Assembly (NCBI GenBank): GCA_965230895.1
Contig: OZ246394.1
Span: 441,316 to 505,315, forward strand
DNA length: 64,000 nt
Direction of reading: 5' to 3'
From: an uncultured Gammaproteobacteria bacterium
GTDB taxonomy: Bacteria > Patescibacteriota > Microgenomatia > Levybacterales > UBA12049
This document shows, in pieces, positions 4,516 to 64,000 of the stretch. Made by a program: the position numbers and the translations under genes. The notes beneath the pieces were generated by a model, which saw nothing but the letters and a program-made list of their open reading frames with translations, did not search any database and was not told the DNA's origin. Each line of letters begins with the position of its first letter. The first letter of the stretch is position 1.

Positions 4516-4527
4516 GGAGGTACTACC

Positions 4528-5064: not shown

Positions 5065-5450
5065 TCCTCTTCCCTATTTACCTGTGTTACTTTTCCACCA
5101 TCTTTTTCAATGACATTGCCATGTGCTAAATCAACGATGAGATGTATTCCTCCTTTAGCATGAGCATCTTGCACTTCTCCTCTGACACGCACATTTATAT
5201 CCAATGGCTCTGTACCCGGTCGAACATCAGCTTCAACCAATGTAGCATTTCCACGGATAATCAAAGCAGTTTCACCAAATAGTGGTTTCTTTACTTTCGG
5301 AGGCTTAACATCACTAGCAACTCCTATTTCGACAAGGACATCTCCTGTACTATAAAAGTGTCCATCTAATCCACCTTGAGGTTTATTTAGTTTTCGAACT
5401 GGCAATGCAGCGAATTCACTCAGTCGTTGTATAATTCTGCGTTCAGGCAT
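5061..5450 (-). CDS. Hypothetical protein (weak beta-helix/bactofilin-like periodicity)
   Basis: 129 aa, Gly/Val-rich repeats (GDVLVEIGVASDV...ALIIRGNATLVEADV...GGIHLIVDLAHGNV); family not identified. Confidence 0.25.
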   Translation of the reverse strand: MPERRIIQRLSEFAALPVRKLNKPQGGLDGHFYSTGDVLVEIGVASDVKPPKVKKPLFGETALIIRGNATLVEADVRPGTEPLDINVRVRGEVQDAHAKGGIHLIVDLAHGNVIEKDGGKVTQVNREED

Positions 5451-5725
5451 AAGCTACGATTATACCATGCTCAGCTATAAATGTCTCACCCATAAAAAAG
5501 CCTCCTCAAGATGAGAAGGCTTTCCCCGTAACGTGATTCGCAGTAGTATATGGAATATACTTTTTGCAGAGATTACTGCTGATTTCGATCGTTCTTTTTA
5601 GCATAAGTAGCATATATTATTGAAGTAACATCTCAGAAAGAACCTTTCTATAAATGTGTAAGAATGATACAAAATTCAAGACAGAGCTAGTATTTTATTA
5701 ATAGATATGTATATACTATTAATAT

Positions 5726-6466: not shown

Positions 6467-6525
6467 GCTCTACTATAATATTCACGTACCATTTAGCCTG
6501 GTTTTATAGTAGAATAAAAGCCTCT

Positions 6526-8055: not shown

Positions 8056-8072
8056 TCTCATTAACTTTAGTT

Positions 8073-9326: not shown

Positions 9327-10438
9327 AAGTTTGTTTAATAAATGGTCACTATTATAAAAGTAACGATGGAATTGGTAGGTATGGTGAGAATTTAATTACG
9401 GATATTGCAAAAATTAACAATTCAATAAAGTTAGACATAGTAACGCATTTACCTACAGACTTATCTTCGAACAAATCAGTAAGAGTTAAATCTTCATTTC
9501 TCCATAAATTTTTACACCCATTTATAATGGAACTGAACTATTTTGTACGCTTTAAAAACAACACTTTAAGATTGCGTAAAGAATTACAAATACATAAAGG
9601 TAATGTTTACCATGCAGTATCGCCAAGTGAAGCAGTATCGGCGGTGTTGGAAAAGAAGCATCCATTAATTACGACATATCATGATATTATTCCCTTACTA
9701 GGGAAAAATCGTTTTATAATGGAAAAGTTTTATTTTCTTTTTTACAATAGTTACGCTAAAAAGAGTGACCTTATAATTTCTGACTCAATAAGTACAAAGA
9801 ATGATTTAGTTTCACATTTAGGAATTGATGAAGAAAAAGTAAAAGTTGTTTATCCAGGAATAGACTTAGAAAAGTTTAAACCATCTAAAAAAATCTCAAA
9901 TAATAAGCAAATAACACTTCTGTATTTAGGAGGGCTAGTTAAAAGAAAAGGGATTTATGAGACTATTTATGCCTTTCATAAGGTAGTACATGAAAGAAAT
10001 GGTCTACAATTATTAATTGCAGGAGTCGGGCCAGAAGAAAATTCTATTAAGAAAATTATAGAAAAACTGAACCTCTTAGATAAAGTAAAGTTGTTAGGAT
10101 TTATAAATGAAGAAAGAATAGCCGATACTTATCAAAAAGCAGATATTTTTATTTATCTATCGTTCTATGAGGGTTTTGGGTATACTCCTCTTGAAGCTAT
10201 GGCAAGTGGAATTCCCGTGATAGCCTCCAACAAGTCTTCTATTCCAGAAGTCGTAGGAGATGCTGGAATATTAGTAAACCCTTCAAATATTAAAGAAGTT
10301 TCAGAAAAAATAAAATTTCTAATAGATAATCCCACTCAGAGAAAGATATTAGCAAAAAAAGGATTGCTGCAATCGAAGAAGTTTAGTAATAGGACATTTA
10401 CAAAGAATATTCTTAGGATTTATAATGAACTAAATTAA
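9323..10438 (+). CDS. Glycosyltransferase family 4
   Basis: C-terminal GT4 motif [20 protein letters not shown]; start overlaps upstream stop (ATGA). Confidence 0.8.
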
Positions 10439-11527
10439 TTGCTTATAGAGATTTACTAATTGTAGAGATATTTCATGCCAAGAGAGTGATTTAGAGTAAG
10501 CTTTTCCAGCTTTTCTTTTTTCTCCTAACTTGGTCCGTTCCTTTATCGATTTTTCCATCATTTTTTCGAGACCGTCTTTGTTCTCCGCATCATAAAAATA
10601 TCCCACATTATTAGGTAAATCTTTAAGTGAACCAATTCGTGGACAGATGATAGGTAGTCCAAACCCTAATCCTAACATTGCAGTACTACTAGTTGTGACT
10701 TTTTTGAAAGGCAATACAAACATATCAGCTGAATTCATATAATATTGAACCAAATTATCTTCAACAAAATTGAGGTTTGCAATTATACGGCCTTCTAGCC
10801 TTTGCTCCTGCTCTTGAATATACTTTTTAAGTGTGTCATCTGAACATTCGCCAGCGATAACGAGTTTAGTATTACCATATTTTTTTGTGATCCTAGCAAA
10901 CTTTTGTATCAAAATATCCACACCTTTATAGTCTCTTATTAATCCTAAAAATAGAAATACAAATTCTTTGTTATTAATCTGCAACTTCATTCTAGCTATA
11001 TTTTTGTTTTTTATCTTATTAATGTAAATCCCTTCATAACTACCGATAGGTATTACGGAAACTTTTTTAGTATTATAATTTGATTTATTCATATCTTCTA
11101 TCGTAGAGTTTGAATGCGCAATGACCGCGTTTGATAAGTATGAAAGTATTTTAAAAATAAGCTTATCGTTGATAAAGATTTTTTCATGTGGCAATATATT
11201 GTGAACCGTCCAGATAACTTTATAATTTAGCAGTTTAACGCAGAGCAGAATTATTAAGAAATATACTGTAAAAAAAATGCGAGTGGCAAAGTTGTTAAAA
11301 ATGATACTCTTGTATGGAAAAATAAAATTATGTAGCCAGTGAATATGAAATATCTTGTATCCGTTAAAACGATAATAAATAATTAAAGGAATATATAAAA
11401 CAATGCTCAAAAAATAAGAGTTTGTAATTTGATTTAAATAAGTTACGAACACTTTATCTTTAGCAGCTTGATACAATAATTCTTGATATGGGTTATTATC
11501 TTTAGAAAATATTAGAATTTTTATCAT
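10430..11527 (-). CDS. Glycosyltransferase (GT4-like) with N-terminal membrane segment
   Basis: GT-B C-terminal region GLGFGLPIICPRIGSL; N-terminal TM helices. Confidence 0.6.
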   Translation of the reverse strand: MIKILIFSKDNNPYQELLYQAAKDKVFVTYLNQITNSYFLSIVLYIPLIIYYRFNGYKIFHIHWLHNFIFPYKSIIFNNFATRIFFTVYFLIILLCVKLLNYKVIWTVHNILPHEKIFINDKLIFKILSYLSNAVIAHSNSTIEDMNKSNYNTKKVSVIPIGSYEGIYINKIKNKNIARMKLQINNKEFVFLFLGLIRDYKGVDILIQKFARITKKYGNTKLVIAGECSDDTLKKYIQEQEQRLEGRIIANLNFVEDNLVQYYMNSADMFVLPFKKVTTSSTAMLGLGFGLPIICPRIGSLKDLPNNVGYFYDAENKDGLEKMMEKSIKERTKLGEKRKAGKAYSKSLSWHEISLQLVNLYKQLI

Positions 11528-11529
11528 TC

Positions 11530-12396
11530 TTATATAATAAGTACACGCTCTTTAAACGAGTATTTCCACAGTAAAACACGTTCATAAATTAATCTAGGAT
11601 AAACTAGCAAAAATAGCAAATAATCTTGTTTTGTTTTATGTTTATCAGTAAATAGTTTGATAAGTATTAACGGTGGAAAGAGAATTGCAGCTATTTTTTC
11701 AGGTGAATATATTCTGTAAAAAAGTTGATACCTTTCACCGTGTAATTTATATGCAAGTACTACGCGGTAATAAACCCATTGAGCAGAGGCCATATAATCC
11801 TTAGCCTTCCATATAGATTGGGAATGGTATACAAGCATTGAAGTGTTAAAGGCTATCTTCCCAAATTTCATTACTCTTAAAGCAAGATCACGATCTTGGT
11901 TCCTTGCAAAAGCTTTATTAAACATTCCAACTTTTTTTAAATATTCTCTTTTATATACGATGTTTGCAGTCATATACTCTCCCCCTTGCAAGTTTTGTAC
12001 TACTCTATCCGAATAACTTGGTACATATCCTTTTGCTATATAAAGTATCTTTCCTTCTACTCCTACTACATTACTTTTAGATAGGGCTTTCAATCCTTGC
12101 TTAATCCAGTTCTTGTCTACTATACAATCAGCATCAGTAAAAAAGATGTATTTACTTTTTGAAAGTGTTATGCCTTTATTTCGAGATAAAGATTTGCCCA
12201 AATTATAAATATTTTTAACAAGCTTTAATCTTTTATCTTTAATTTGTTTAATTTCAAGCAATGTATCGTCTGTTGAAGCGTCATCTATAACTATTAGCTC
12301 AAAGTCTGATTCTGTCTGGACAAGAACTGATTCTATAGTTTTTTTGATATGGTTACCCATATTAAATGTAGCAATGATTACTGTAGCCTTTATCAT
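11530..12396 (-). CDS. Glycosyltransferase family 2
   Basis: VIIATFNMGNHIKKTIESVLVQT...ELIVIDDASTDDT (GT2 DxD region). Confidence 0.8.
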   Translation of the reverse strand: MIKATVIIATFNMGNHIKKTIESVLVQTESDFELIVIDDASTDDTLLEIKQIKDKRLKLVKNIYNLGKSLSRNKGITLSKSKYIFFTDADCIVDKNWIKQGLKALSKSNVVGVEGKILYIAKGYVPSYSDRVVQNLQGGEYMTANIVYKREYLKKVGMFNKAFARNQDRDLALRVMKFGKIAFNTSMLVYHSQSIWKAKDYMASAQWVYYRVVLAYKLHGERYQLFYRIYSPEKIAAILFPPLILIKLFTDKHKTKQDYLLFLLVYPRLIYERVLLWKYSFKERVLII

Positions 12397-14637
12397 TTAT
12401 TTAAATACTGTAGATCCTTTATTTGTATATATTACATCTTTATTCTCATTAAGAAACTCTATCGGGAAATTATAAATGAGTAACCCGTTACCTCCATATT
12501 TAAAAGTTATTCCTTGTTTAATATTAGTTCGGGTTGCATAGACATAATCCTGATCATTCATTGCAGCAGGTAAAACTTCAAGCTTCACTTTACCGCTAAG
12601 GTTGTAGTATGGGGATTGATACAATTTAAACTGCGCATAATTATCTAATGCAATTAAGTTGTTCTTTGGTTTATGTTGTAAAAGCCAATTCATTGAATAT
12701 ATCTCATCTGCTGTCGTATAGCTAAAATCATAGTCTTTGCCTGCATTTGCTACGTTTAATTGGATTCTGTTGCCTCCAATAAAGTAATAAGGTACATGAG
12801 ACAGGAATAATAGATAAAGAGCGATGAAGACCGCATAGATGCTAACTTTGAATGAATTATTTAATACTTTAAGAATAGTTAGCGCAAAAATTGGAAAGAC
12901 TGCTAGAATAAGAAGCAACTGTTGATATAACCTAATAGGATCATAAAATCCTCCCAGAAATGGCAACTGGACAAGCATTGCTAGAGTTGCTAATGATACA
13001 AAACTTATTACTACATAGAATTTATTACTTTGACTATGTTTTTTAGCATACAAAAAGAGTCCAACAAGGATTAATAGAAACCCAGATCCTAAGAGTAAAA
13101 TTTTTATTTTTTCAAAAACTCCATAAAGAAGATTATGATTAAAAACAGGAGTTAAGACAGAAGTCTCTTTAATAGAACTCGGATATTTGTTAACTGCAGA
13201 ATCTGAATATGTAGTAATATCAAGTTTTTTTATTCTTTGGACATAGTTGGCTAAATCTGCTTCTGGAGTAATCGGAAGTCTTTTAACAATATAATTTAAT
13301 GGTGATTTATCCAAAGAGAATGCGTTTGCGCTAACACTATCCCGTAAGTTAACCGCTTTATGACCAATGTCTGTAACACCAAAATACCAAACTGCTTCTA
13401 AAAGTAAGAAAACTATAATTAGGACACCAAATAGATTTAAATTAAACTTTTCATTAAAAGCTTTCTTACTTACTTTTTTAATGTAAATTTTCCAGGTTTG
13501 GAAAAAGAAAGCAACTACATACACAAAAGGAAATAGAATCGTTAAGATAAAAGTTGTTGAATAGTGTGATGTAATCACACAGAAACTAAATATTGAGAAA
13601 AGAACTACTTTCATCTTATCTGTTAGCTTATTTGTAAAGAAAGTTAGGTACATTAAAGATAAAAATAAGAATGCTATTTCCTGCCTTGGTGGAAAGAGAT
13701 TCCATACTGCGAAAGTAGGCTGTACAATGAAAAAAAGAACACCTAAGAACGCATAGAGGTTTTTTGTTAATTTATTAAATAAGTAATACAGAGCAACAGG
13801 TAAAAAACAAAAAATAATTGGAAATGCTACTTTTTGAACAAGCAATAAGCTACTATCAAGAAAATGTGAAAGTATAATTGGAAGCATAACAATGCTTAAC
13901 ATTCCAAAATAATTATTTCCTCCTTCCCAATAGTCCCAATATCCATTCTGAAATACGAAATTACCTAATCCGTATTCTAAAGTGGCGTCCGTACTTGCGA
14001 TGAACCAACTCCTTAGCGATCCAGTAAAAATCAAGGTAAGCGACAAGAAATATAAATTCCAAGGATATAACTTTGAAGAAAGTTTTTTATGAAGAAATAC
14101 GAAGAATATTATGTAAAGTGCGACGAGCCCATACACAGATAATGTGATGTAACTCGTTCCATAATTATTTAAAGAAGTCGCCCCTAAAATACTTATTACG
14201 GGGAAAACTGCAGGTATTATAAAAAATACTGTGTTTAGTAAATTTCGCGAAGGAATTTGAATAGATAAATGTAATTTATGTATCCTGAAGTAAGCAATAG
14301 ATAATAATATAGAGAAAGCTATGTCAAAACTCACAAGTAAGGGTATTAATTCTAAAGGCCTTCTAACATCAAACAAAAGTAATGTTTCATTGCATAAGAC
14401 GCCTACAACCATTAAGAAGGCCACACTCATACCAACCGAATAAATAACATATTCCCCAAGCTCCATATTATAAATTTTAAATATGAGCATAAGCAAAAAT
14501 CCTGGTACAAAGATTAGGAATAGAAAAACAAGAAAAGTTTCTACATGAAAGATATTGATATTCCCCAAAATCAGTACATTAACAAGAGCTAATAGTGAGA
14601 GCAACAATATAAAAAGAGTATTTTTTGTGAAAATCAT
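12397..14637 (-). CDS. Large polytopic membrane protein (746 aa) with C-terminal soluble domain; candidate glycan polymerase/transferase
   Basis: >14 TM helices; loop motif 'NGYWDYWEGG'; ~140-aa hydrophilic C-terminus; embedded in a glycosyltransferase cluster. Confidence 0.35.
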   Translation of the reverse strand: MIFTKNTLFILLLSLLALVNVLILGNINIFHVETFLVFLFLIFVPGFLLMLIFKIYNMELGEYVIYSVGMSVAFLMVVGVLCNETLLLFDVRRPLELIPLLVSFDIAFSILLSIAYFRIHKLHLSIQIPSRNLLNTVFFIIPAVFPVISILGATSLNNYGTSYITLSVYGLVALYIIFFVFLHKKLSSKLYPWNLYFLSLTLIFTGSLRSWFIASTDATLEYGLGNFVFQNGYWDYWEGGNNYFGMLSIVMLPIILSHFLDSSLLLVQKVAFPIIFCFLPVALYYLFNKLTKNLYAFLGVLFFIVQPTFAVWNLFPPRQEIAFLFLSLMYLTFFTNKLTDKMKVVLFSIFSFCVITSHYSTTFILTILFPFVYVVAFFFQTWKIYIKKVSKKAFNEKFNLNLFGVLIIVFLLLEAVWYFGVTDIGHKAVNLRDSVSANAFSLDKSPLNYIVKRLPITPEADLANYVQRIKKLDITTYSDSAVNKYPSSIKETSVLTPVFNHNLLYGVFEKIKILLLGSGFLLILVGLFLYAKKHSQSNKFYVVISFVSLATLAMLVQLPFLGGFYDPIRLYQQLLLILAVFPIFALTILKVLNNSFKVSIYAVFIALYLLFLSHVPYYFIGGNRIQLNVANAGKDYDFSYTTADEIYSMNWLLQHKPKNNLIALDNYAQFKLYQSPYYNLSGKVKLEVLPAAMNDQDYVYATRTNIKQGITFKYGGNGLLIYNFPIEFLNENKDVIYTNKGSTVFK

Positions 14638-15716
14638 ATCTTAGCATTAACAACCCGTTGTATTTTTTCTCTTTGAAGATTAAAGCTACCTATAATTATA
14701 CCTACAAGGCTAATAAACTCAAGAATGAACTGAATATACGGAAATAATAAGTAAGTAAAATCTAAGGTTTTAATAAATTTAACTAGCCACCAGCCATAAA
14801 TAATATGGGGTATTATAAATATAACTAAAAACCATTCATATCCCAAGCTAATCAAAATGACACTATTTAAAACAATTAATAGTATAGGAAATGGAAATAA
14901 ATGAGGAATTTTCTTATTAAGGTGGTAATAGCTCACAATTGCATCTTTTCTAAGATACGGCTTTTTAATTAATTGAATAAATGATGTTTCACCGTTGTGG
15001 TAAATAATAGCTTTCCTGGTACAAATAAACGGATCTTTTGTTATTTTTTTAATTCGATTACATAAATCTGTGTCTTCAATTCCACTCAAGTCAGGGTTCC
15101 ATCCTCCAACTTTTTTTAGTAAATCAGTAGGAAATGAACAATTCTCTCCCCAAATCTCGCTGACGATGAATTTATTTTTCTTTATCTTACTAGTAGTCTT
15201 GCTATACATATCTTTTATATAAATTAGTAATCTCTTCAAAGGGCTATTGAGACGGCTATTATGTAGCGGTGAAGGGTTACCATGACCGATTTCCATGAGA
15301 TATTTATCAATAATTCCAGATGTAGAATTTTTCGTTTGGCCACAGACCCCTGCCACATTCGGAGAATATGCCTTAAGAAGCTCTTCTAACCAACTCTGGT
15401 CTGCAAAACAATCATCGTCAAAGCAAATATATACTTTTCCTTTTGCATGCTTTAGTCCTGTATTTCGTGCTATTGAAAGTCCTGCATTTTTTTTATGACG
15501 TATTACTTTAATAGGATAGGATTTCGCAACTTTGTAAGTATTATCAGTTGAACCATCATCAATAAGTATAATTTCGAATTTATTACTTGGATATGTTTGG
15601 TTTAATAAAGATTCTATACTTTTTCTAATTATCTTTTCACCATTAAATGTACAAATGATTATTGAAGCATCTAGTTTTATTTCTTTATTCATAAACCTCC
15701 TTATAAAAATTTTCAA
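14634..15716 (-). CDS. Glycosyltransferase family 2 with C-terminal TM helices
   Basis: IIICTFNGEKIIRKSIESLLNQT...IILIDDGSTDNT; two C-terminal TM helices. Confidence 0.8.
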   Translation of the reverse strand: MKIFIRRFMNKEIKLDASIIICTFNGEKIIRKSIESLLNQTYPSNKFEIILIDDGSTDNTYKVAKSYPIKVIRHKKNAGLSIARNTGLKHAKGKVYICFDDDCFADQSWLEELLKAYSPNVAGVCGQTKNSTSGIIDKYLMEIGHGNPSPLHNSRLNSPLKRLLIYIKDMYSKTTSKIKKNKFIVSEIWGENCSFPTDLLKKVGGWNPDLSGIEDTDLCNRIKKITKDPFICTRKAIIYHNGETSFIQLIKKPYLRKDAIVSYYHLNKKIPHLFPFPILLIVLNSVILISLGYEWFLVIFIIPHIIYGWWLVKFIKTLDFTYLLFPYIQFILEFISLVGIIIGSFNLQREKIQRVVNAKI

Positions 15717-16830
15717 CTCTCTTTGTAATTATGTCCCATGTATAATGCTTCTTAACAAAATTTAAAGCGTAACTTGACTTATTTAAACTGTTTTGTGATT
15801 TTAATATTTTTATAAGTCCTGTAGATAACGCATCACTATTATCAGATTCTATAATGTATCCTGCTTTTCCTTTATCAACATATAATGGTAAGTCTCCAAC
15901 ATTACTAACAACAGGAACCATCCCCATAGCCATATATTGAAACGCTTTTAAATTACTACATGCTTTTATTGTTTCTTCATTTGGCATATATGCATATCCA
16001 ATATCACCAAATTTTGTGAATTTAGGAATTTCATTCATTTGTACCCATCCAGTAAATTTAACATACTTACTAACTTTTAATTTTTTGACCAAATTCTTAA
16101 AATATGGAAGAGCTTGACCGTCGCCGAGTATATAAACAAAACGCCCTGAATACTTATATTCCCTAACAATCCGAGGTATAGCTTTAATGAGTGGACTAAT
16201 TATATTTTCTCTATTGAGAGACCCAATTGCAATGATTCTTTTTCCACTTTTTTGTTTTTTTCGATCCATAATATAATCTGAGTCTATACCATTAGATACC
16301 CATACAATGTTTTTTTGAGGAAACATGGCAGTGTACTTACTTTTTAAATAGTTTGAGGCACAGATAATCCCATCGGAATACTTAAGTGAAACAGTTTCAC
16401 ATATCTCTACTAGCTTCACCATTATTTTAGGATTATTCTCTAATACCATAACCTTACTACCTAAATCATCCATATCTACAATAATTGCCTTTTTCCGAGT
16501 AAATTTAGGAACTATACCAGGAATCGTTATAGGGGTAGGTTTATAAAGATGTACAATGTCATAATCTTTCTTATGCAAAATAATGAGAGTGTGTAGTATA
16601 TAAGGCACTAAATTAACTAATCTATTTTTAGTATTAAACTGAAAAGGCCTAATTATTTTTATACCTTTGACTTCAGAAAAACTCTCTCTTTTATAATCGC
16701 TATATTTATCTAGTGATGGCGCAATTATTGAAACGCTATGCCCTTTTCTGACTAGACATTTAGCAAAAGAAAGTATTCGATATGTTAGTGTACTGTTTAT
16801 GGTACCTGATGCTAGCATTATAATTTTCAT
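15685..16830 (-). CDS. Glycosyltransferase family 4
   Basis: GT-B fold; conserved region FQYMAMGMVPVVSNVGDL. Confidence 0.7.
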   Translation of the reverse strand: MKIIMLASGTINSTLTYRILSFAKCLVRKGHSVSIIAPSLDKYSDYKRESFSEVKGIKIIRPFQFNTKNRLVNLVPYILHTLIILHKKDYDIVHLYKPTPITIPGIVPKFTRKKAIIVDMDDLGSKVMVLENNPKIMVKLVEICETVSLKYSDGIICASNYLKSKYTAMFPQKNIVWVSNGIDSDYIMDRKKQKSGKRIIAIGSLNRENIISPLIKAIPRIVREYKYSGRFVYILGDGQALPYFKNLVKKLKVSKYVKFTGWVQMNEIPKFTKFGDIGYAYMPNEETIKACSNLKAFQYMAMGMVPVVSNVGDLPLYVDKGKAGYIIESDNSDALSTGLIKILKSQNSLNKSSYALNFVKKHYTWDIITKRVENFYKEVYE

Positions 16831-17954
16831 CTTACTGTATCTATAAATAGCTTATTAGTATTTTCTATTTTTTTGTCCCAACCGTAGTCTTTAACAACTT
16901 TGACGTGGCCTTGTTTTCCCATTTCTGCTCTTAAAGTTTTATTTGAGATTAATTTAGAAATTGCCTTAGTTAGTTCACTTACATTTTTAGGGGTATACAA
17001 TAGACCATCTTTACCATCTGATATTACCTCTTTTATACCACCATTTTTTGCCCCTATTACTGGTGTTCCACATGCCATTGATTCAATAAGAACCATTCCA
17101 AAACTTTCGTTTATGGAAGCTAAAACTAATGCGTTTGAGACTTGATACTGCCTTACAAGTTCTTCCTTATCCAGTTGGCCCTTAAAAGTAACATAGCGCT
17201 GTATATTAAGTTTTTTACTTAAATCCTTAAAATAATCTAGATTGTCTCCTTCTCCTACAGATACTAAATTAACAATCTTGTCTTGATTAATTAACTCCTT
17301 AACTGCATAAAAGATATCTTCTAATCTTTTATAACTTTCTGCTTTTCTTAAACCTCCGATAGTTAATATTTGAAATATTATATTTTTCTTTTTCTTTATA
17401 GGTTTAAATAAATTTAAATCTACACCAGGAGAGATCAAATGAGACTTACCTATTACATCCTTAAGAAGTGAATCACGAACAAAGCGAGATACATAAATTA
17501 TTCGTTTTGCCCGGTTAAGAAGTATTCTTAAAAAAAATCTTTCATATATTCCAATAATTATATCCGGAATAAGTTTCCCTTTAATCATTGAGCCTGTATG
17601 ATATGTCACAACTAACGGTATTTTCCCTTTTACGGAAGATACGACATCTGCGATAAAAGGCACTGGTGTATGAGCATTAATCAAATCTGGTTTTTCATTA
17701 TTAATAATTTGTTTAATTGTATGATACCAGAAAAGACTTAGAGGAGTATTTGATAGCTTAAACCAATACGGCAGTTGATATATTTTAATACCTTCGATAT
17801 TCTCAATATTAAATTCATTTTTTATATGATTTGAAGTTACGACAATTACTTCCCACTTATATTTTGTCTGAAGGCCTTTAGCAATATTAAATGCGTATTT
17901 CTCCATACCTCCAAGTTTGGGATAAAAATATGTTGCGACAAGCAATAATTTCAT
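16827..17954 (-). CDS. Glycosyltransferase family 4
   Basis: ESFGMVLIESMACGTPVIGAKNGGIKEVI motif. Confidence 0.8.
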   Translation of the reverse strand: MKLLLVATYFYPKLGGMEKYAFNIAKGLQTKYKWEVIVVTSNHIKNEFNIENIEGIKIYQLPYWFKLSNTPLSLFWYHTIKQIINNEKPDLINAHTPVPFIADVVSSVKGKIPLVVTYHTGSMIKGKLIPDIIIGIYERFFLRILLNRAKRIIYVSRFVRDSLLKDVIGKSHLISPGVDLNLFKPIKKKKNIIFQILTIGGLRKAESYKRLEDIFYAVKELINQDKIVNLVSVGEGDNLDYFKDLSKKLNIQRYVTFKGQLDKEELVRQYQVSNALVLASINESFGMVLIESMACGTPVIGAKNGGIKEVISDGKDGLLYTPKNVSELTKAISKLISNKTLRAEMGKQGHVKVVKDYGWDKKIENTNKLFIDTVR

Positions 17955-19090
17955 AGGTAATAAGTATTCTCTATATCTTTAGTGATAATTTCCCAATCAT
18001 ATTTAATACTATATTCTTTATAATTCGTATTTATTTTTTTATTTTGTAAAAGAATAACTTTTTCTGCAATAATTTTAGGATTAAGCTTGATTGAATATCC
18101 ATTTTCTCCATTCACAACAAGATCTTTTGACGCGTTATCATCATGATTGATTGTTATGACAGGCAAACCTGAAGCATTCGCCTCAATAATAACTATACCG
18201 AAGCCTTCTCTTGTTGAAGGAAACACAAAAACCTTTGATGATTTCATTAATGCGTATAAATCATCATGATTATTAAGAAATTTAAGAAATTTTATATTTT
18301 TTGTCATACCCATTTTTTCTATTCTAGCTTTAAGATTTTCTTCTTCTGGTCCGTTTCCAACGATAATACAATGTATATTTTTTTGGGATTCACTCAAAAT
18401 TTTGACAGCATCGATTAATACATCCACGTTTTTATGTTTAAGTAACCTTCCTGCAAAAATAATATCGCTTTTAATTTTAGAAGGATTAATACCATTAATA
18501 TGATTAATATCTATCCCAATAGGAATAGTTACAATCTGTGTTGTTGATTGGAATTCTGATAGAAGTTTTCTCGTGGTATGGTCTGATATTGAAATTATCT
18601 TGTTTGGAAGTTTTACGCTCAGCCACTCAATGGCATACGCAATATTGCCTAATAATCCCATATATTTAACCCAATACTTTTGACCCCATACCTCATTCCA
18701 AGTAACAATCATCTTTTTATTTTTATAAATACAGACAATTTTTAACGGAAAGAGAACCAGATGGGGCATATGATCTACATCAATTACATCAAAGTTCTTA
18801 TTCATCAATTTGAAGCAATGTAAGCCAAAAAGAATCGCTTCTTTAATGGATCTGCGTTCGCCGGAGTACAGAGGATACAAGGGGCTGATTGCTTCGTGGA
18901 CGACCCCTTCATGTGTAACCCGAGTACTTTTGCCTTTCCACCATTTCATGGTGTATATAGTTACTTTATGACCTCGTTTGGCTAAGCGGGTACTTATTTC
19001 GTAGATGCGTTTTTCCTTCCCACCGATATTGTATGGAAAAATGGCATCAGAAACGATAGCGATGTTCAGCTTTCTAGATTGAGGTTTCAT
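17951..19090 (-). CDS. Glycosyltransferase family 4
   Basis: EGFGIVIIEANASGLPVIT motif. Confidence 0.8.
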   Translation of the reverse strand: MKPQSRKLNIAIVSDAIFPYNIGGKEKRIYEISTRLAKRGHKVTIYTMKWWKGKSTRVTHEGVVHEAISPLYPLYSGERRSIKEAILFGLHCFKLMNKNFDVIDVDHMPHLVLFPLKIVCIYKNKKMIVTWNEVWGQKYWVKYMGLLGNIAYAIEWLSVKLPNKIISISDHTTRKLLSEFQSTTQIVTIPIGIDINHINGINPSKIKSDIIFAGRLLKHKNVDVLIDAVKILSESQKNIHCIIVGNGPEEENLKARIEKMGMTKNIKFLKFLNNHDDLYALMKSSKVFVFPSTREGFGIVIIEANASGLPVITINHDDNASKDLVVNGENGYSIKLNPKIIAEKVILLQNKKINTNYKEYSIKYDWEIITKDIENTYYL

Positions 19091-37037: not shown

Positions 37038-37577
37038 TTCTGTATGAAAAAAGCTCAAGCAGAAATACTTTCCTTTCAGGCAAAAATTGCCAAAAACGGT
37101 TAAGTAATTCCTACTTGAGCCTTCCCTGAACTCGAATGGATTACATGTATGACTGTTACTATCCTACTTAAAGATAGCTCTTGATCAATGGCATGTAACG
37201 ACCCATTGTCGTTGTTCGCGGTCTCCTCGAAGTTGAACAGTACCGAAAATCTTTTGTTAACAATAAATTATCATGTATTTTGAAACTTTGCAACTTTAAT
37301 CTTATTCCTTTTTACGCCCCTGTTATGTACACTGTATATAGCTTGCAAAATATGCAATTTTATCCTATAATATAGGTATCATTTTAAGATTTGCCTAACC
37401 CTATTGGTTCGCCGATAGGCATGGCAAGAAAACCGTTGAAAGTAGTAAGCTCGTCGTCGAGTTCTTTCAACGGTCATATGGGGAAACTCATATGGGGAGA
37501 AATCCCGCTGGCGGCGAGCTTTTTGTATGGCTTCATTTTGTCCTCAAAAAGATCGTCCCATTTAGGAGGTGATACTT

Positions 37578-55457: not shown

Positions 55458-56699
55458 ATGGTTATTTCAAACCTAACATACGTAAAAAACACTAATACTG
55501 TCACAGTATCAGCTGACATTAACTTCCGCGGCAAGAAAATAGAACGGGCTTATATCACAACCGACAAAAAGTATGAACGCTTTATTGTAAAAGATTACAC
55601 AGCATTCCTGGCCGCTGTACTCCTTCCATGTATGAAGACAGGTGAAAATATCTATGTAGATGGTGCAGTTTCAGAACAATTCCTTGCAAACACCAATGAT
55701 ATCATGAAACTCCTCGTAAAATGGCAAGTTGGACTTACCCGTATAAAGATTCGTGCAAAGGAAACAAATGTAGATACATTTAAGCCTCGATATACAGGAA
55801 GTTTCTTTACAGCCGGTGTTGATTCTTTCTATACCTATTTGCGAAATAAAGATAAGAAGACAACCAAAGTTTCTCATCTTGTTATTGTCCATGGCTTTGA
55901 TGTGCCACTCTCAAATAAGCCTTTTTATAATAAAGTAAAAGCCACTGTTGAAAAAGTGGCTCAAGAAGAAAAAATTAATGCAATTTCACTTGAAACAAAT
56001 CTTGGAGAAATTATAGAAAAACGATTGGTCTGGGATTTTGCGCATGGTGGAGCGCTTGCAGCAATAGCTCTTATTTTAAGAAAGCAAATGAAAAATATGC
56101 TCATTCCAGGCGCAGTTCGTAATGACCAACTCTTCCCTTACGGTACACATCCAGAACTTGATGTACTTTGGTCAACTGAAACGCTCAATGTTAAAAGTGA
56201 TGGCGGAGAGCATGACCGTATGGGTAAAGTTACAAGTTTAGTAAGTAAATCCCCTCTTGCTTTAAAATACCTACGAGTTTGTACACAAAACCTTGAAGGT
56301 AAATATAATTGCTCACGATGTTACAAATGTTTGATGACAATGATGTATCTTGTCGGTTCAAATACATTATCCAAATCTAAGACCTTTGAGAAGAAAATCA
56401 ATATTGATGCAGTTCGGAGGATGTACTATGACTACAAACTAAAGTATAATATACAAGGAGAGCAAGCGCTCGCACTTTTGAAACGCAAAAAGATTAACCC
56501 AGAGTTGCAAGAAGCAATCGCATTTAGTCTTGAGAAAAGTAAAAAGCCGCAATTTGTAAAACAAGTATCACAAACAATTGCTGCATGGGATCAAAAGTAT
56601 AACGATCGAAGATTGTATCAATTCATTTTCAAAATGAATGATAAGAACGATCGAAACGCCCTTTTCAAATTCTTATTTAAGAAAGGTTTATTAAAATAA
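55458..56699 (+). CDS. Hypothetical protein with degenerate PP-loop-like motif and C-terminal CxxC...CxxC
   Basis: FFTAGVDSFYT (cf. SGGxDS PP-loop); NCSRCYKC; 413 aa; TTGACA/TACACT promoter-like hexamers upstream. Confidence 0.35.
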   Translation: MVISNLTYVKNTNTVTVSADINFRGKKIERAYITTDKKYERFIVKDYTAFLAAVLLPCMKTGENIYVDGAVSEQFLANTNDIMKLLVKWQVGLTRIKIRAKETNVDTFKPRYTGSFFTAGVDSFYTYLRNKDKKTTKVSHLVIVHGFDVPLSNKPFYNKVKATVEKVAQEEKINAISLETNLGEIIEKRLVWDFAHGGALAAIALILRKQMKNMLIPGAVRNDQLFPYGTHPELDVLWSTETLNVKSDGGEHDRMGKVTSLVSKSPLALKYLRVCTQNLEGKYNCSRCYKCLMTMMYLVGSNTLSKSKTFEKKINIDAVRRMYYDYKLKYNIQGEQALALLKRKKINPELQEAIAFSLEKSKKPQFVKQVSQTIAAWDQKYNDRRLYQFIFKMNDKNDRNALFKFLFKKGLLK

Positions 56700-57235
56700 T
56701 GGAACTTATTGCATTACTGACATTAGGAATAGTCATCATCAAAGTATTATGGATTCGTACTGAAATTAAGTTTTCAAAAGAACGAATTAATTTCGACATG
56801 ATTAAAACAAACTTTGTTGAAGCAGCAATACTCGTTTTGCAAATACTTGCAGCAATCTTTACTCCGATTCCTCAAACTCCATTCTCATTCTTAATTACAA
56901 TTGCTGGTGTTGCGATGTATATTGGTGGATTTATCCTCGCGATCTGGGCAAAGAACACAATGAGCAAATCTTGGGGAGTCCCGGGAGAGCATCATAAGAA
57001 ACAAGATAAGCTTGTAACCGAAGGACCTTTCGGGTTCTCACGAAATCCTATTTATCTCGCGTTCATGATGATCTATTTCGGTTTTGCAATTGCAATCCAA
57101 AGTTGGCTTATTATTTTGAGAATCCCTCTTGCAATTTACTTCTATAAATCAGCAGTTCGTGAAGAAAAGAATCTCGAAAAAATATTTGGTAAAGAATACA
57201 CAGACTACAAAAAACGCGTCCCCCGATTCATTTAA
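56699..57235 (+). CDS. Isoprenylcysteine carboxyl methyltransferase (ICMT/PEMT) family membrane methyltransferase
   Basis: 4-5 TM; C-terminal GPFGFSRNPIYLAFMMIY...REEKNLEKIFGKEYTDYKKRVPRFI; start overlaps upstream stop (TAATGG). Confidence 0.7.
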   Translation: MELIALLTLGIVIIKVLWIRTEIKFSKERINFDMIKTNFVEAAILVLQILAAIFTPIPQTPFSFLITIAGVAMYIGGFILAIWAKNTMSKSWGVPGEHHKKQDKLVTEGPFGFSRNPIYLAFMMIYFGFAIAIQSWLIILRIPLAIYFYKSAVREEKNLEKIFGKEYTDYKKRVPRFI

Positions 57236-58571: not shown

Positions 58572-58942
58572 AAAGCTATTTTACCATTAAATTAACCTAA
58601 ACAGATTAGTAAAAATGATTAACTTTCTATTTAGATTGATTTGATAACATAATTACCTCAACAAGACATTTTTAGCCACGGCTGTGCTTGAAATTTTTGC
58701 GAAAAGGGTGTAGTATCTTGTATAGATACGAGACGAAATTATCATCCGAAAAGATGATAAAGGTGGGAACTGAGCCGAGAGATTTGGAAAGAGTATATTA
58801 CCCAACACTCCACAAAAGCCCCACTGCCCAAAACTCAAGAAAATAAACAATTATCGTTGCGGACTTGTTCCGGAATCTTCTAGACCAAAAGATTCTCAAC
58901 AAATTCATAATGACTATCCCACAAAGAAAGGGGGTGAAGACT

Positions 58943-59473
58943 ATGACAAATAATGGAATTGTAAATATACATGGAAAAGAATACATGACGGTTGCACGTC
59001 GAGTTGAATTAGCACAGGAGAACCGAGCTTTAGAAGGAGTAGAAACTGAAGTACTAAACCACAACCCTGTTGTTGTGAAAGCAAAAGTCACTCTCAAAGG
59101 TGAAGTCTACACTGGAATTAGTTCAGTGAGTCTTGAAACAACTCGAGAAATCGAAAAGCAAAACCCATACGAAGTTGCAGAAACTTCAGCTGTTGGAAGA
59201 GCATTGGGATTTGCAGGATACGGTTTGATTGAAAGTATCGCATCAGCGGATGAAATGGTACGAGCAACGTTTGGCAAACCACAGAATACCGTCAAACAAC
59301 TTCCACAAAAACTTTCCGATACACGTGTTGACTCTGAGAAGGACACTGTTACTTGCGAAGTTTGTGGCGAACCGGCAACAGAACGCAAAGGAACAACAAG
59401 AAATGGCAAACAATATCATGGCATTTTTTGCTCCACAGAGAACAGAAGTCACACACGATGGCTCTGGAATTAA
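58943..59473 (+). CDS. Hypothetical protein with C-terminal zinc ribbon
   Basis: RBS AAGGGGGTGAAG; CEVCGEPATERKGTTRNGKQYHGIFC; 176 aa. Confidence 0.4.
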   Translation: MTNNGIVNIHGKEYMTVARRVELAQENRALEGVETEVLNHNPVVVKAKVTLKGEVYTGISSVSLETTREIEKQNPYEVAETSAVGRALGFAGYGLIESIASADEMVRATFGKPQNTVKQLPQKLSDTRVDSEKDTVTCEVCGEPATERKGTTRNGKQYHGIFCSTENRSHTRWLWN

Positions 59474-59544
59474 GAAGCGGGGGAAGGTAAGCATATGGGC
59501 AGATATATGTAATCTTCCCCTTCTTTAGAGAATCTTCAACAACT

Positions 59545-60849
59545 ATGACACAACAAGAAGCATTAGATGTACTGAAAACTGGAAACAATGTTTTCTTAAC
59601 TGGATCTGCGGGTTCAGGAAAAACATATGTCATTAATAGGTACATAGATTATTTAAAAGTACAAAATAAAAAAGTGGGCATTACTGCATCGACAGGTGTC
59701 GCAGCTACCCATATTAATGGAATTACACTCCATGCTTGGGCAGGGATTGGCGCACGTACAGAGATTAATGACATTGTCATTAATGATTTACTGCAAAGAA
59801 AATATTTACGTGATCGATTCTCAAAAACGGATGTACTTATCATTGATGAAGTCTCTATGTTATCTGCTCAAACGTTTGGCGCAGTTGATACCATTTTGCA
59901 AGCATTTCGTGACAACGACGAACCGTTTGGTGGAATGCAAGTTGTTTTGTGCGGAGACTTCTTTCAGCTTCCTCCGATTGAGAAAACACTCCATTTAAAC
60001 TCCAGTTCTTCATCATATGTCTACCGCGCACCTGTATGGAAATTATTAGATATTAAAGTTTGTTACCTTGATAAGATTTATCGACAAGTAGATGACACGT
60101 TCCTCAACATTCTTAATCAAATTCGTCAGAATAATATTACCAAAGATGTTTGGGATACACTCAAGCATCGTTTCTTCCACTCATTTTATGATGGTGTTTC
60201 TCCTACCCGACTTTATACACATAATGCTCAGGCAGATAAAGTGAATAATCAGGAATTAGCAAAATTGGATGGCATCCCAAAAACATATCATATGAAATCC
60301 CGTGGCAATGACATCCTTGCAAATATTATGAAGAAAAATTGCTTGGCACCTGAACAACTGATATTGAAAAAGCAAGCGCTCGTCATGTTTGTAAAAAATA
60401 ATTATGAAGAAGGTTATGCCAATGGCACAATGGGACGCGTCATCGATTTTACTGAGAAAGAGGGATACCCAATCGTACGAATGTTCAATAAAAAAGAGCT
60501 TATTGTTCGTCCGTCAGAGTGGACGATAGAAGAAGAAGGCGAATCGAAAGCAACAATTCAGCAAATTCCTTTACGACTTGCTTGGGCAATCACGATCCAT
60601 AAAAGCCAGGGTATGACATTGGACGCTGCAGAAATTGATCTAGGAAAGTCTTTTGTTACGGGTATGGGGTACGTCGCACTTTCACGAGTGAAAAGTCTTA
60701 ATGGTATACGACTACGTAGTTTAAATCGTACAGCACTTACCGTGAGCGATGAAATTATTAAAGTTGATAAAAGGCTCCAGCAAATGTCTGCAGAAGTTGT
60801 CCAGGAGCTCCATAACAGTTCATACTACAAGATAAATAAAGAAAACTAG
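59545..60849 (+). CDS. PIF1/RecD-like SF1B DNA helicase
   Basis: Walker A TGSAGSGKTYVI; Walker B LIIDEVSML; motif HKSQGMTLD; 434 aa. Confidence 0.8.
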   Translation: MTQQEALDVLKTGNNVFLTGSAGSGKTYVINRYIDYLKVQNKKVGITASTGVAATHINGITLHAWAGIGARTEINDIVINDLLQRKYLRDRFSKTDVLIIDEVSMLSAQTFGAVDTILQAFRDNDEPFGGMQVVLCGDFFQLPPIEKTLHLNSSSSSYVYRAPVWKLLDIKVCYLDKIYRQVDDTFLNILNQIRQNNITKDVWDTLKHRFFHSFYDGVSPTRLYTHNAQADKVNNQELAKLDGIPKTYHMKSRGNDILANIMKKNCLAPEQLILKKQALVMFVKNNYEEGYANGTMGRVIDFTEKEGYPIVRMFNKKELIVRPSEWTIEEEGESKATIQQIPLRLAWAITIHKSQGMTLDAAEIDLGKSFVTGMGYVALSRVKSLNGIRLRSLNRTALTVSDEIIKVDKRLQQMSAEVVQELHNSSYYKINKEN

Positions 60850-61783: not shown

Positions 61784-61830
61784 TGTAAGAATTAGCCACA
61801 AAACTTGCACACTCTAACAGAATTAGTATA

Positions 61831-62664
61831 ATGGGTAAGTTTATGGCACAACCTGAACGTGGTCACCCACAAGACCATGAACCCACATCTCCAAGAAAAC
61901 CTGTTGTCGTGTATGATAGGTTAACAGTTGTTAATTCACATACTTCTCCTGAAGACATACGTCTTGGGCTAGCTCGAACTGCCGTGGGAGAAGGTTATGT
62001 ACCGTACTACCACAAGTATATACGCACAATTAAAGCGAAAGAAGCAAGAGGACAAACTATTAATAAACAACTATTGGGGAAATACGCAGATGAGGCATCC
62101 CAACTTATGTACGATGATTCGTACGGACGAAGTGGACGATCCGAAACAATTTGCGTATTTGACGAAAATCGCCGGCTTGGAACGGTCCTGGCAGCTACAG
62201 GAAGACTTGTTCTGGGGGAAGAATATCCTACAGAAGTAATGAGACCCCTTGAATTGATGGAATTGGTAAATCCCGAGGGAGGCTGGGATGCAATCTTGGG
62301 AAATAAATCCTTAGATAGAGTTGTCGAACTTGGGAGAATTGTTGTAGTCAATGAATATCGTGGCACTATCGAAAAGAATGGTAAAGCGGTCAATCAGACT
62401 TCAGAAATCGCCCACCATCTTATTGATAGTCCAAATGGAGTTGTCGAAGTAGCACAAGATCACGATAGAGAGATAGTGCTTATGGTGGCACAACAGAAAT
62501 TTGCTAAACACGCGAAAGGGACACAACTTGACTTTGGTGAAGGTGTACCGATACAATTGCTCCCAGCTGCGAGAGTGGTAAAAAAGGTTTTTCCGGGATA
62601 TTGGAAGGACCAGCAAGACCCTCCAATGCTCTATGCAGCGCAAGTCCCGCCCAAAGCCGCTTAA
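61831..62664 (+). CDS. Hypothetical protein, GC-elevated; partner of the E1-like gene
   Basis: 277 aa; no TM; single Cys (ETICVFDEN); no confident family. Confidence 0.3.
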   Translation: MGKFMAQPERGHPQDHEPTSPRKPVVVYDRLTVVNSHTSPEDIRLGLARTAVGEGYVPYYHKYIRTIKAKEARGQTINKQLLGKYADEASQLMYDDSYGRSGRSETICVFDENRRLGTVLAATGRLVLGEEYPTEVMRPLELMELVNPEGGWDAILGNKSLDRVVELGRIVVVNEYRGTIEKNGKAVNQTSEIAHHLIDSPNGVVEVAQDHDREIVLMVAQQKFAKHAKGTQLDFGEGVPIQLLPAARVVKKVFPGYWKDQQDPPMLYAAQVPPKAA

Positions 62665-63878
62665 TTATGGAAAGAATAATACCAGGAGGTCACTCTGAAA
62701 GATATAAAAGAATACGTACAGAAGTAAACCGTCCTACACTAGAAACGATGAGACCAATTATTTATCCTGCTGGTACTGGAGAGAGTTGGCATGCATTTAA
62801 TGAATCTCTGCGGACTTTCCCAGAAAGAGCACATCAAATTCCTTGGAGATCAGGTGATCCAGAAGAAATACGAATAGAAGCAATGCAACGAGGAGTCCTC
62901 ATCGATAAATTCCCGGCTATGTTGGGAGATGTTGCAAAACGAAAATGGAGTAATCGCTATAACCCTGATTTTTTTGCAGACAATCCAGATATAATACCTC
63001 GCTATATAAATCTGTTTGATAGACCTCAATTTCAGACTGGGTTCGAATTTCCTTGGACAACACAAGGAGCATTTGTTATCGGAGGCGATGAAAAAACAAC
63101 AAGAGAAACAATATATTCAGGGACTGTGGATGAAGATCCTAGACTTATCACTCCAGAAGACTTTGATGCTTTTGGAAAATTAAAAGTAGGAATTTTGGGA
63201 GGCGGTGTAGGATCATCAGTTGGAGATGCATTAATTGAATTAGGAGTTAGAGATATAAAAATGATTGATGGCGGAGATGTTTTACTTCATGATTTTAGAA
63301 GTCAACCAAATGCAGGTTTTCCAAGATTCGGAATGAATCATGCAGAGCATTGGGGCTTACGAGCATATGAGATGTATCCTTATGGAAATTTTGAATATAT
63401 TAAACAAAACTTAGGAGATGGTACAAAAGGAACATACTCAAGAGCTGCATTCATCGAAGATAGAGACATTCTATTTGAAGTCGTCGATAATTTGCCTGAA
63501 AAGTTACGTAGTCGAGAAGCCGCACGAGATAGAGGTATTCCAGTATTTATGCCCACAGATTTATTAATGGGTGCAGATATGATGTATCAACCAGGGCAAT
63601 CTGATGCAGAAATTTTTCCAAATTTAAGTGAAGAAAGCCGCAGAAAAGCGTTATCAGGAAAACCAATGGGATTTGTTGAAATATCAGACATTGCGAACGA
63701 ATTAGTTGGTCCAAACGCGGACTATTGGAGTGCTGGGGCAAGAAGAGGTCGAGGTAACTGGTCACAAAACGGTGCTCAAGCAGCAACTTCGAAAGCCGCC
63801 GTAGCACAAACACTTAGAAGGTATGTCAGAGGTAAGGAAATACCTCATAGGAAAGGTTTTCTATTAGAAGATTATTAA
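62665..63878 (+). CDS. E1/ThiF-like adenylyltransferase-domain protein with ~170-aa N-terminal extension
   Basis: Rossmann GILGGGVGSSVGDALIELGVRDIKMIDGGDV (GxGxxG ... D.D); ATG directly after the upstream stop. Confidence 0.45.
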
Positions 63879-64000
63879 GTAGTTTTATCGTAATACTTGC
63901 ATTTTTTGCTAAAAATGAGTAAGCTCTGCATACAATGACATTGGCAGTAATTTTGCTGACAGCATTTACAAACATACTGCTCGGAATAATAAGCTATAAG

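Follow-up and report, generated by a model that had tools for sequence, protein, structure and literature searches.

The stretch of DNA described here, 64,000 nucleotides of contig OZ246394.1 (assembly GCA_965230895.1, positions 441,316 to 505,315 of the forward strand) and referred to below as the window, carries at its 3' end two adjacent genes, A and B, that encode a predicted GNAT-fold acyltransferase and a ThiF/E1-fold enzyme. Both are real open reading frames (ORFs) on the same strand within the span 61831-63878, and their homologues come from genomes named 'Candidatus Levybacteria bacterium' at NCBI, members of the candidate phyla radiation (CPR; Patescibacteria). The gene for a histidine kinase follows and is cut by the end of the window. 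The features at the locus are:

61805..61832, + strand: promoter-like element 5' of gene A (TTGCAC, 16-nt spacer, TATAAT), read from the sequence.
61843..62664, + strand: gene A, 273 aa; GNAT fold by AlphaFold, without a family match in Pfam, NCBIfam, PADLOC or PDB sequences.
62667..63023, + strand: gene B, N-terminal extension (about residues 1-119), a helical/mixed subdomain with invariant positions in the alignment.
63024..63878, + strand: gene B, ThiF-like adenylating/cyclase domain (about residues 120-403), assigned from Pfam ThiF, the Rv1355c model, hhalign and AlphaFold.
63897..63925, + strand: promoter-like element 5' of the kinase gene (TTGCAT, 17-nt spacer, TAAGCT).
63935..64000, + strand: 5' end of the gene for the 708-aa histidine kinase (first 22 codons; the full gene is seen in locus L001).

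Gene A almost certainly starts at the ATG at 61843. An earlier note on this DNA had placed the start at 61831, giving a protein of 277 aa, but that ATG sits within a conserved, perfect TATAAT box (61827-61832) and in all homologues the first codon is the one corresponding to 61843. The ATG at 61843 stands 10 nt after this -10 box, so that gene A would have a leaderless or near-leaderless start. The layout CTTGCA...TAGTATAAT...GTTT-ATG, with a spacer of about 16 nt, is kept upstream of A in six related loci (L003, L007, L011, L018, L019 and L022); the automated scan did not list this promoter because its -35 box fits at only 3 of 6 positions. The stop codon of A (TAA, 62662-62664) is followed after 2 nt by the ATG of gene B (62667-63878, 403 aa), a spacing also found in most relatives, so that the two genes do adjoin as had been noted, though not with zero gap. 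Given this short gap and the promoter before A, the pair would appear to be one transcription unit. The kinase seems to have its own conserved, putative promoter, with its ATG 9 nt after the -10 box TAAGCT and the motif ACTTGCATTTTT...TAAGCTCTGCATACA-ATG conserved within the B-kinase spacer of 10 loci; no terminator-like site was found between B and the kinase gene in a scan of the window sequence. The arrangement of CTTGCA(C/T), 16-17 nt, TATAAT or TAAGCT and 9-10 nt to the ATG is common to A (61805-61843) and the kinase (63897-63935), and the two conserved promoter-like elements would imply leaderless or near-leaderless mRNAs in this lineage.

The protein encoded by gene B matches the Pfam family ThiF (PF00899) over residues 161-294 with 40.1 bits against a gathering threshold of 28.1, and its AlphaFold model (pLDDT 82) has an E1/ThiF fold, bearing out the ThiF/E1-type Rossmann motif that had been read in the second gene. 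The fold matches of the model are AclA (PDB 9egb, the top match, on which a literature search found no paper), ThiF, MoeB, Atg7, SUMO E1, PaaA and MccB. Amongst the NCBIfam models the best is NF005901, the Rv1355c family, at E 5e-10, with the models for ThiF (the next, at 2e-3), TcdA and Atg7 lying between 2e-3 and 5e-2. Rv1355c is TrzS, which together with TrzA makes tryptazolones (PMC12856293). For comparison, Rv1355c-family genes were taken from Rhodococcus and Mycobacterium plasmids. B is 26% identical over 252 aa to the Rhodococcus protein by BLASTP, and hhalign places its residues 120-396 on residues 57-325 of that protein with a probability of 98.3% and an E-value of 1.3e-14. This profile alignment spans the whole of the ThiF-like half, including the preceding F/Y-P-W and the C-terminal W-x-Q-x-G motifs. 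The N-terminal extension is real, although the ~170 aa first ascribed to it is too long, homology to Rv1355c-type proteins being visible already from about residue 120. The extension has a conserved P-W-x-S-x-D-P...R-x-E-A..R-G motif and no family match of its own in Pfam or NCBIfam; it also forms the linker region of P0038, a GNAT-ThiF fusion protein described below, and no more than the final part of the extension can be aligned with the short N-terminus of Rv1355c-type proteins.

In an alignment of six B variants, two GNAT-ThiF fusions, two Rv1355c-type proteins and Desulfovibrio PRK14852, B shows an F-P-W motif, the glycine-rich loop G178-x-x-V181-G182-S, the pair N224-H225 and the C-terminal W365-x-Q367-x-G369. 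Residues G178, V181, G182, D201, the 'NR' arginine at R211/R212, D274, K279 and R283 are conserved or nearly so across the alignment. Asp274 falls in the column of the conserved motif aspartate of Rv1355c-type proteins, Asp217 of TrzS, where substitution with alanine abolishes cyclisation (PMC12856293). Judged from these residues the adenylation (ATP) site of B appears to be intact. By its Rv1355c-model and hhalign matches the ThiF domain is best placed with the cyclase clade of TrzS, OxzB and TyzB. B contains no cysteine and the family has no conserved cysteine column, which rules out E1-type thioester chemistry.

Gene A had been described as encoding a protein of unknown family, and the sequence libraries do indeed give no match, whether Pfam (E up to 0.1), NCBIfam, PADLOC or PDB sequences. 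Its AlphaFold model, built from a nine-sequence alignment, is confident (pLDDT 87.4, pTM 0.84), and a Foldseek search of the PDB with this model returned the GNAT acetyltransferases PaiA, GCN5/PCAF and NatD as well as repeated matches to the acyl-homoserine lactone (AHL) synthases LasI, RpaI, BjaI and MesI. The GNAT fold of the model can be regarded as secure. The AHL-synthase-like subfamily is only suggested, as the TM-scores, 0.36-0.39 on the query and 0.45-0.62 on the targets, are moderate. Structure prediction therefore upheld the E1/ThiF fold expected of B but revealed in A a GNAT/AHL-synthase-like acyltransferase that the earlier note had missed. Conserved throughout the family are Y52, D92, R121, E162-L-G-R165, R173, Y253-W254 and P261; the E-x-x-R motif lies on the core strand, and a C-terminal Y-W...D-P-P motif is specific to the family. 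The E-x-x-R strand motif and a D...R pattern recall LuxI-type and N-acyl-amino-acid synthases, although sequence statistics could not confirm this. The single cysteine reported for A is present (C104 in the 273-aa form) but is not conserved across the family. Weak matches to TIGR03694, the exosortase-associated acyltransferase, were obtained for 15 of the 41 family and remote members, the best at E 1.7e-6. From its modelled fold and its context, A is proposed to be an N-acyl amino acid synthase.

Domains like A and B are found fused elsewhere, linking their functions. The closest case is P0038 (Levybacteria MBI2074524.1, 641 aa, from a metagenome-assembled genome), a natural fusion of an A-like and a B-like part in the same order, in which residues 57-233 match the A profile (pairwise E 3e-7) and residues 275-627 match residues 32-392 of B with 27% identity (E 2e-27). 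A protein encoded on a plasmid of Streptomyces sp. NBC_01431 (WP_329468361.1, 622 aa) consists of a GNAT followed by an Rv1355c-type ThiF domain, scoring 397 bits on positions 26-340 of the Rv1355c model, without an FDO, the nitroreductase-type domain; its gene is followed by a KAS III gene and not by a kinase gene. Both fusions are ~25-30% identical to the A and B proteins of the window. Desulfovibrio PRK14852 (989 aa) has ~300 N-terminal residues of no identified family, then ThiF, then FDO. With the 2-nt spacing, the fusions substantiate the two-gene module put forward in the earlier note. A different fusion is seen in two JGI metagenome proteins, P0043 and P0060, where an A-like GNAT is joined to a FAD_binding_4 flavoenzyme domain of the vanillyl-alcohol-oxidase/4-cresol dehydrogenase type.

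The context was expected to continue beyond the window, and in L001, which covers the same genome past the window end and whose A and B are identical to those of the window, the next gene (5501-7627 of L001) encodes the 708-aa histidine kinase. Its Pfam domains are, in order, HisKA_7TM (a seven-transmembrane, 7TM, sensor), GAF, HisKA and HATPase_c. The same kinase family lies directly 3' of B in 11 of the 11 loci with a visible downstream side (L001, L003, L007, L009, L011, L012, L018, L019, L022, L023 and the fusion locus L024). The usual gene order of the lineage has a rhomboid gene upstream and PspC and DAGK downstream; in L009 and L023 both flanks differ (BacA upstream; Trp-repressor or His_Phos_1 downstream) and the kinase still follows. 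In L024 the P0038 fusion and its kinase (4461-8634) are embedded in a type IV pilus cluster; this kinase is 41% identical to that of the window overall and 54% in the 7TM part, the enzyme parts being ~28-30% identical. The rhomboid, DUF2905, FAD monooxygenase and PIF1 genes were considered as members of the module and rejected, being absent from L009, L023 and L024.

A number of further features surround these genes. The pilus cluster of L024 (14232-21926) comprises PilB/MshE-, PilT- and PilC-like genes, N_methyl pilins and a prepilin peptidase, and a divergent CheY-like single-domain response regulator (9466-9840) adjoins the fusion-kinase pair. In the window, between the FAD monooxygenase and rhomboid genes, an ORF without a family (58865/58910-59473) and a PIF1-type helicase gene (59545-60849) together form a variable two-gene insert (58865-60849) that is also upstream of the rhomboid gene in L007, L012, L019 and L021 and is missing there in L003, L004, L005 and L011. 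Several relatives, but not the window genome, have another pair of genes beside the trio of A, B and kinase: the first encodes a further GAF histidine kinase, which is soluble (~396 aa), and the next a protein of 374-454 aa without a known family, one of these proteins giving a weak nSTAND3 match (L007 12251-14798, L008, L012 5228-7706 and L019 7552-9868).

Oxazolone synthetases were discovered in 2020-2021, and a signalling role has been suggested for them but never shown. OxzA is an N-acyltransferase that forms N-acyl-tyrosine from acyl-CoA, and OxzB, a ThiF-nitroreductase fusion, converts N-acyl-tyrosine and ATP to the oxazolone; oxzA lies immediately upstream of oxzB in Pseudoalteromonas rubra and other Proteobacteria (de Rond et al., bioRxiv 10.1101/2020.06.11.147165). 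In M. tuberculosis, C12-tyrazolone is made by TyzA together with TyzB, which is a ThiF homologue standing alone, and the FDO TyzC; the structural neighbours of TyzA are FeeM and BjaI, and the fold class of A is that reported for TyzA and OxzA (PMC10404671). TrzS cyclises before it desaturates: its cyclase by itself yields a cyclised intermediate that is still saturated, which builds up if the FDO is short of O2, disabled or mutated (PMC12856293). Oxazolones are destroyed by acid and by methanol. The neighbours of trzAS are cyclic di-GMP (c-di-GMP) genes. According to a 2025 review, ThiF-like enzymes have carboxylate adenylation in common and use many different nucleophiles, and oxazolone formation is the only non-RiPP ThiF-like chemistry in secondary metabolism (PMC12596934), RiPPs being ribosomally synthesised and post-translationally modified peptides.

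It would seem likely, with a probability that we put at roughly 0.55, that A and B constitute a two-enzyme small-molecule pathway, a desaturase-less relative of OxzAB, TyzACB and TrzAS composed of an N-acyl amino acid synthase and an ATP-dependent cyclase. A would N-acylate an amino acid, and B, as suggested by its homology to the TrzS/OxzB/TyzB cyclases and its conserved ATP-site residues, would adenylate the N-acyl amino acid's carboxylate. Attack by the amide oxygen would then close a 5(4H)-oxazolone ring with release of AMP. As no nitroreductase-type desaturase is fused or nearby, the oxazolone formed would presumably remain saturated and prone to hydrolysis, or else another nucleophile may capture the acyl-adenylate or azlactone. 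The adjacency of the 7TM-GAF kinase is observed throughout, and the module may be functionally tied to it, with the kinase sensing the product or its membrane effect, or controlling a response coordinated with the product.

The pair resembles OxzAB in that an acyltransferase gene lies directly upstream of a ThiF-type gene on the same strand, in the GNAT/AHL-synthase-like fold of A, in the ATP-dependent ThiF-type carboxylate activation expected to close the oxazolone ring and in the signalling role suspected for both. It differs in that the window locus has no nitroreductase/FDO domain or gene, OxzB being a fusion with such a domain, and in its extremely divergent sequences, the additional ~120-aa N-terminal subdomain of B, its Levybacteria (CPR) host and its invariable link to a 7TM kinase. 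Like TyzB, B is a stand-alone ThiF protein, and the likeness to TrzAS lies in the Rv1355c (TrzS) model being the best for B, with the whole cyclase domain aligned and an aspartate in the TrzS D217 column. In contrast to the window locus, the TyzACB and TrzAS systems always have an FDO, separate (TyzC) or fused (TrzS); the lysine of their GxNK motif is a histidine in B, and a kinase gene stands here where c-di-GMP genes neighbour trzAS. As the FDO, one of the defining features, was searched for and is absent, the pair is filed as working like oxazolone synthetases and as a variant of them, not as a member. P0038 and the Streptomyces fusion likewise lack a desaturase and join these two domains, in unchanged order, on one polypeptide in place of the two of the window, and P0038 too is followed by a HisKA_7TM kinase.

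A can also be compared with LuxI-type AHL synthases, sharing the fold of LasI, RpaI, BjaI and MesI and the E-x-x-R on the core strand, and, through the weak matches of remote A-like proteins, with the TIGR03694 acyltransferases. Unlike AHL synthases, it is larger (273 aa), has no Pfam Autoind_synth match and has its own C-terminal Y-W...D-P-P motif; no significant match to the LuxI-type profile (Pfam PF00765) was obtained, so that the likeness is one of fold alone. LuxI-profile homologues beside sensor kinases have been described in CPR genomes, in the phyla Giovannonibacteria, WWE3 and others (Bernard et al., PMC7567580). The Levybacteria locus is similar in having a candidate acyl-signal synthase gene near a sensor kinase gene, but those cases are LuxI-profile genes directly beside the kinase and come from other phyla. 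ThiF is not mentioned in that paper, nor is any LuxI case from Levybacteria; family A is invisible to LuxI profiles. A literature search brought up no work on GNAT-ThiF modules lacking an FDO, or on a connection of such modules with HisKA_7TM kinases.

Comparison of positions 61843-63878 of the window with L003, L007, L009, L011, L012, L018, L019, L022 and L023 shows that A and B do not follow the history of their flanks. The kinase and rhomboid proteins on either side show 67-91% identity across seven related genomes, and their relationships are congruent. Between the window genome and L003, by contrast, the amino-acid identities are 89% for the kinase and 88% for the rhomboid protein, but 69% for A and 37% for B; between L018 and L019 they are 83% and 91% against 35% for both A and B. 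The two genes also part company, with A 35% and B 83% identical between L007 and L022 (kinase 77%), and A 26% and B 59% between the window genome and L009 (kinase 52%), so that A-types and B-types combine differently between genomes. Nucleotide identity between the window and L003 is 73-87% for the flanks but only 59-76% within A and 39-60% within B, with sharp edges at the A/B junction and at the stop codon of B. From these sharp drops in identity and the mixed A/B combinations beside conserved flanks, both A and B have been replaced cassette-like within a conserved locus. All variants keep the catalytic motifs and are therefore still under selection. The most conserved segment is the 7TM sensor of the kinase, 94% identical in L003 and 54% in L024.

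Gene replacement is thus supported by the incongruence of A and B with their flanks, as the acquisition idea of the earlier note would have it, but base composition is not its sign. Statistics were computed on the 60 non-overlapping ORFs called in the 64-kb window, to which all z-values refer. Gene A has the highest GC content of the 60 (44.7%, z = +1.85), but the excess lies in first codon positions (GC1 0.62), and therefore reflects amino-acid composition, while the GC at third codon positions (GC3) is ordinary (0.335, z = +0.9). Gene B is not elevated, either overall (39.2%, z = +0.5) or in GC3 (0.208, z = -1.45), and the flanking genes lie at 36-39%. Thus, of the picture of two genes at ~45% GC between flanks at ~33%, only the high overall value for A stands; its GC3 is not atypical. 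With ordinary GC3 in A, no enrichment in B and the pair at the same syntenic site in relatives, horizontal transfer inferred from GC was rejected; the composition does not point to a foreign origin. The stretch of the window whose composition is atypical lies elsewhere, a low-GC block of ~12 genes at ~6526-19090 (GC 0.29-0.33, z -1.0 to -2.0) that encodes GT1, GT2 and GT4 glycosyltransferases, a Polysacc_synt flippase and a DUF2206 membrane protein, a surface-polysaccharide cluster.

Several observations weigh against the proposed pathway. The match of B to NF005901 scores 38.2 bits over profile positions 92-229 only, short of the equivalog cut-off of 476 bits, which is set for the full-length ThiF-FDO protein, and all Levybacteria two-gene versions have His225 in place of the GxNK lysine. 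No nitroreductase/Acg-type FDO was found by Pfam in B or its neighbours, and an FDO hidden Markov model and three single FDO sequences found nothing in the six-frame ORFs of the 64-kb window or of 22 related loci. Attempts to link A to known ACYLTRANSFERASES by sequence (hhalign, hmmsearch, sub-profile) failed. The A profile showed no significant similarity, by hhalign or hmmsearch, to the hypothetical protein adjoining the Rhodococcus Rv1355c gene, to the N-terminus of the Streptomyces fusion or to that of the Desulfovibrio protein; against PDB sequences its top matches were spurious sums over TALE repeats, with solved AHL synthases at E 0.18-1.6, and a core sub-profile gave nothing relevant and did not find AHL synthases. 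The tie of A to acyltransferases is thus drawn from its modelled fold and its context. CPR bacteria generally lack fatty-acid synthesis, which makes the acyl donor a difficulty. Confidence that the kinase is a ligand-specific receptor for a variable product is lowered by the conserved 7TM sensor beside swapped A and B genes, an unusual arrangement for a co-evolving signal-receptor pair; in the agr and comQXP pherotype loci the sensor co-varies with the signal genes, unlike the kinase here.

Amongst other explanations, A and B might be an amide or ester ligase pair and not a cyclase system, yielding a non-cyclic conjugate, either because B adenylates a carboxylic acid whose acyl group the GNAT-fold A transfers to an amine, or because the N-acyl amino acid made by A is adenylated by B and joined to an amine, a lipid head group or a protein. 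The many nucleophiles used by ThiF-like enzymes after carboxylate adenylation (PMC12596934), the absence of a desaturase that would stabilise an oxazolone and the exchange of the GxNK lysine for histidine in this clade would all suit such a pair, but the closest sequence relatives of B are oxazolone cyclase domains and the module has no conserved third gene for an acceptor or carrier. GNAT-fold enzymes are, moreover, not known to use acyl-adenylates, and we regard a ligase pair as rather unlikely. It is also conceivable, though on balance doubtful, that the enzymes act as proposed and the kinase is a mere conserved neighbour or a regulator of other genes. Its own conserved promoter, a 7TM domain 94% identical where B is 37% identical (L003) and a gene order generally conserved in the lineage (rhomboid upstream; PspC and DAGK downstream) are what would be expected of such a bystander; yet the adjacency persists where both flanks are different (L009 and L023) and beside the distant fusion in the pilus cluster of L024, with identities to the window's proteins of ~28-30% for the enzymes and 41% for the kinase.

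The remaining possibilities start from the fold of B, and each is far less probable. The MccB-like 'clamp + E1' layout proposed in the earlier note would make the locus a RiPP system of the microcin C or pantocin type, with B adenylating the C-terminus of a small peptide and A serving as an MccE-like self-immunity or tailoring acetyltransferase. MccB and PaaA are amongst the fold matches of B, and mcc clusters do include a GNAT, MccE (PMC4010828). MccB is, however, aligned over just ~250 columns, the size of an adenylation domain; the extension of B is common to Rv1355c-type proteins and GNAT-ThiF fusions, A resembles AHL synthases and not RimL/MccE, and an immunity enzyme fused to the synthetase, as P0038 would then be, would be odd. 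MccB-type proteins also carry zinc-site cysteines, where B has none. A seven-codon ORF, MSKLCIQ, does lie in the B-kinase spacer (63915-63938, + strand), its stop codon overlapping the kinase start codon, and resembles a microcin-C-type heptapeptide gene. It was rejected as a precursor peptide: it is not an ORF in L003, L012 or L019 and appears as a by-product of the conserved kinase promoter, with whose -10 region it coincides. Neither the region upstream of A nor the A/B gap nor the B-kinase spacer holds a conserved small ORF, and there is no transporter or precursor-peptide gene downstream in L001 and no exporter or peptidase gene in the related loci. A RiPP system is accordingly very improbable.

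A ubiquitin-like (Ubl) conjugation or anti-phage E1 system (Cap2, Bil or 6A type), also raised from the ThiF/E1 fold of B, has in its favour weak domain-level E1-E2 matches in PADLOC (E ~5e-4, 17 bits). The lack of cysteine in B leaves no thioester, the site is syntenic with housekeeping-type neighbours, and the downstream search that the earlier note had suggested for Ubl, E2, JAB/deubiquitinase or precursor-peptide genes came back empty, both in the 10 kb downstream of B in L001 and in the related loci (11 loci for Ubl, E2 and JAB/deubiquitinase genes), so that there is hardly any probability left to this idea. Scarcely more can be said for TcdA-like RNA modification, in which B would cyclodehydrate a nucleoside such as t6A on tRNA. 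Among PDB sequences the B profile picks up TcdA as well as a domain like it, with E-values from 1e-4 to 1e-3, and the chemistry, cyclodehydration of an N-acylated amino-acid moiety, is analogous. Orthology to TcdA was nevertheless rejected, B scoring 13 bits on the TcdA equivalog model against a cut-off of 304; the Rv1355c model is far better than that of TcdA (E 5e-10 against 0.05), the obligate pairing and fusion with a GNAT would be left unexplained, and a tRNA-modification gene would not be expected to be swapped among close relatives as A and B are.

Returning to the two-enzyme pathway, A, B and the kinase might, in its furthest extension, form a self-contained chemical signalling circuit of Levybacteria (CPR), in which a short-lived saturated oxazolone or a derivative of it is perceived by the kinase and feeds into cell-surface or pilus behaviour. 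The pilus or surface output is suggested by the CheY-like regulator and the type IV pilus genes that flank the fused version in L024. This is a speculative proposal that we think unlikely to hold as a whole. In such a circuit the swapped A and B genes would mark chemical 'dialects' or an arms race.

The family is sparsely represented. A word-indexed search of 5.8 billion proteins gave 7 clusters for B (9 by a later profile search) and 9 for A, and an exhaustive search of 1.84 billion representatives with the A profile gave 42 A-like proteins at E <= 1e-3, ~11 of them full-length close relatives. Scans of GTDB representative genomes and JGI metagenome contigs for the family, and a tblastn search of plasmids with B, found no match. 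The module is very rare and has so far been seen in Levybacteria-type CPR bacteria only. Elsewhere in the window, a LOOT RNA (Rfam RF03000) lies at 37392-37506 (+ strand), scoring 85.5 bits against a gathering score of 46.4, and a 413-aa protein without a Pfam or NCBIfam match is encoded at 55458-56699 (+ strand), its gene running up to the start codon of the next, which codes for a PEMT-like methyltransferase (56699-57235), a pairing kept in L003, L005 and L007.

For family A, which the sequence libraries do not recognise, the analysis assigns a fold and a probable function. The module as a whole is a minimal two-enzyme version without a desaturase, accompanied in every case by a 7TM sensor kinase of a single family, and as such would be a natural experiment in which the product of a ThiF cyclase is left without the desaturase. 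The locus is one at which biosynthetic genes swap between close relatives with their neighbours conserved, and its kinase offers a concrete candidate for an oxazolone-related sensor. If the signalling circuit were true, oxazolone-type lipids would gain from it their first receptor and their first physiological role.

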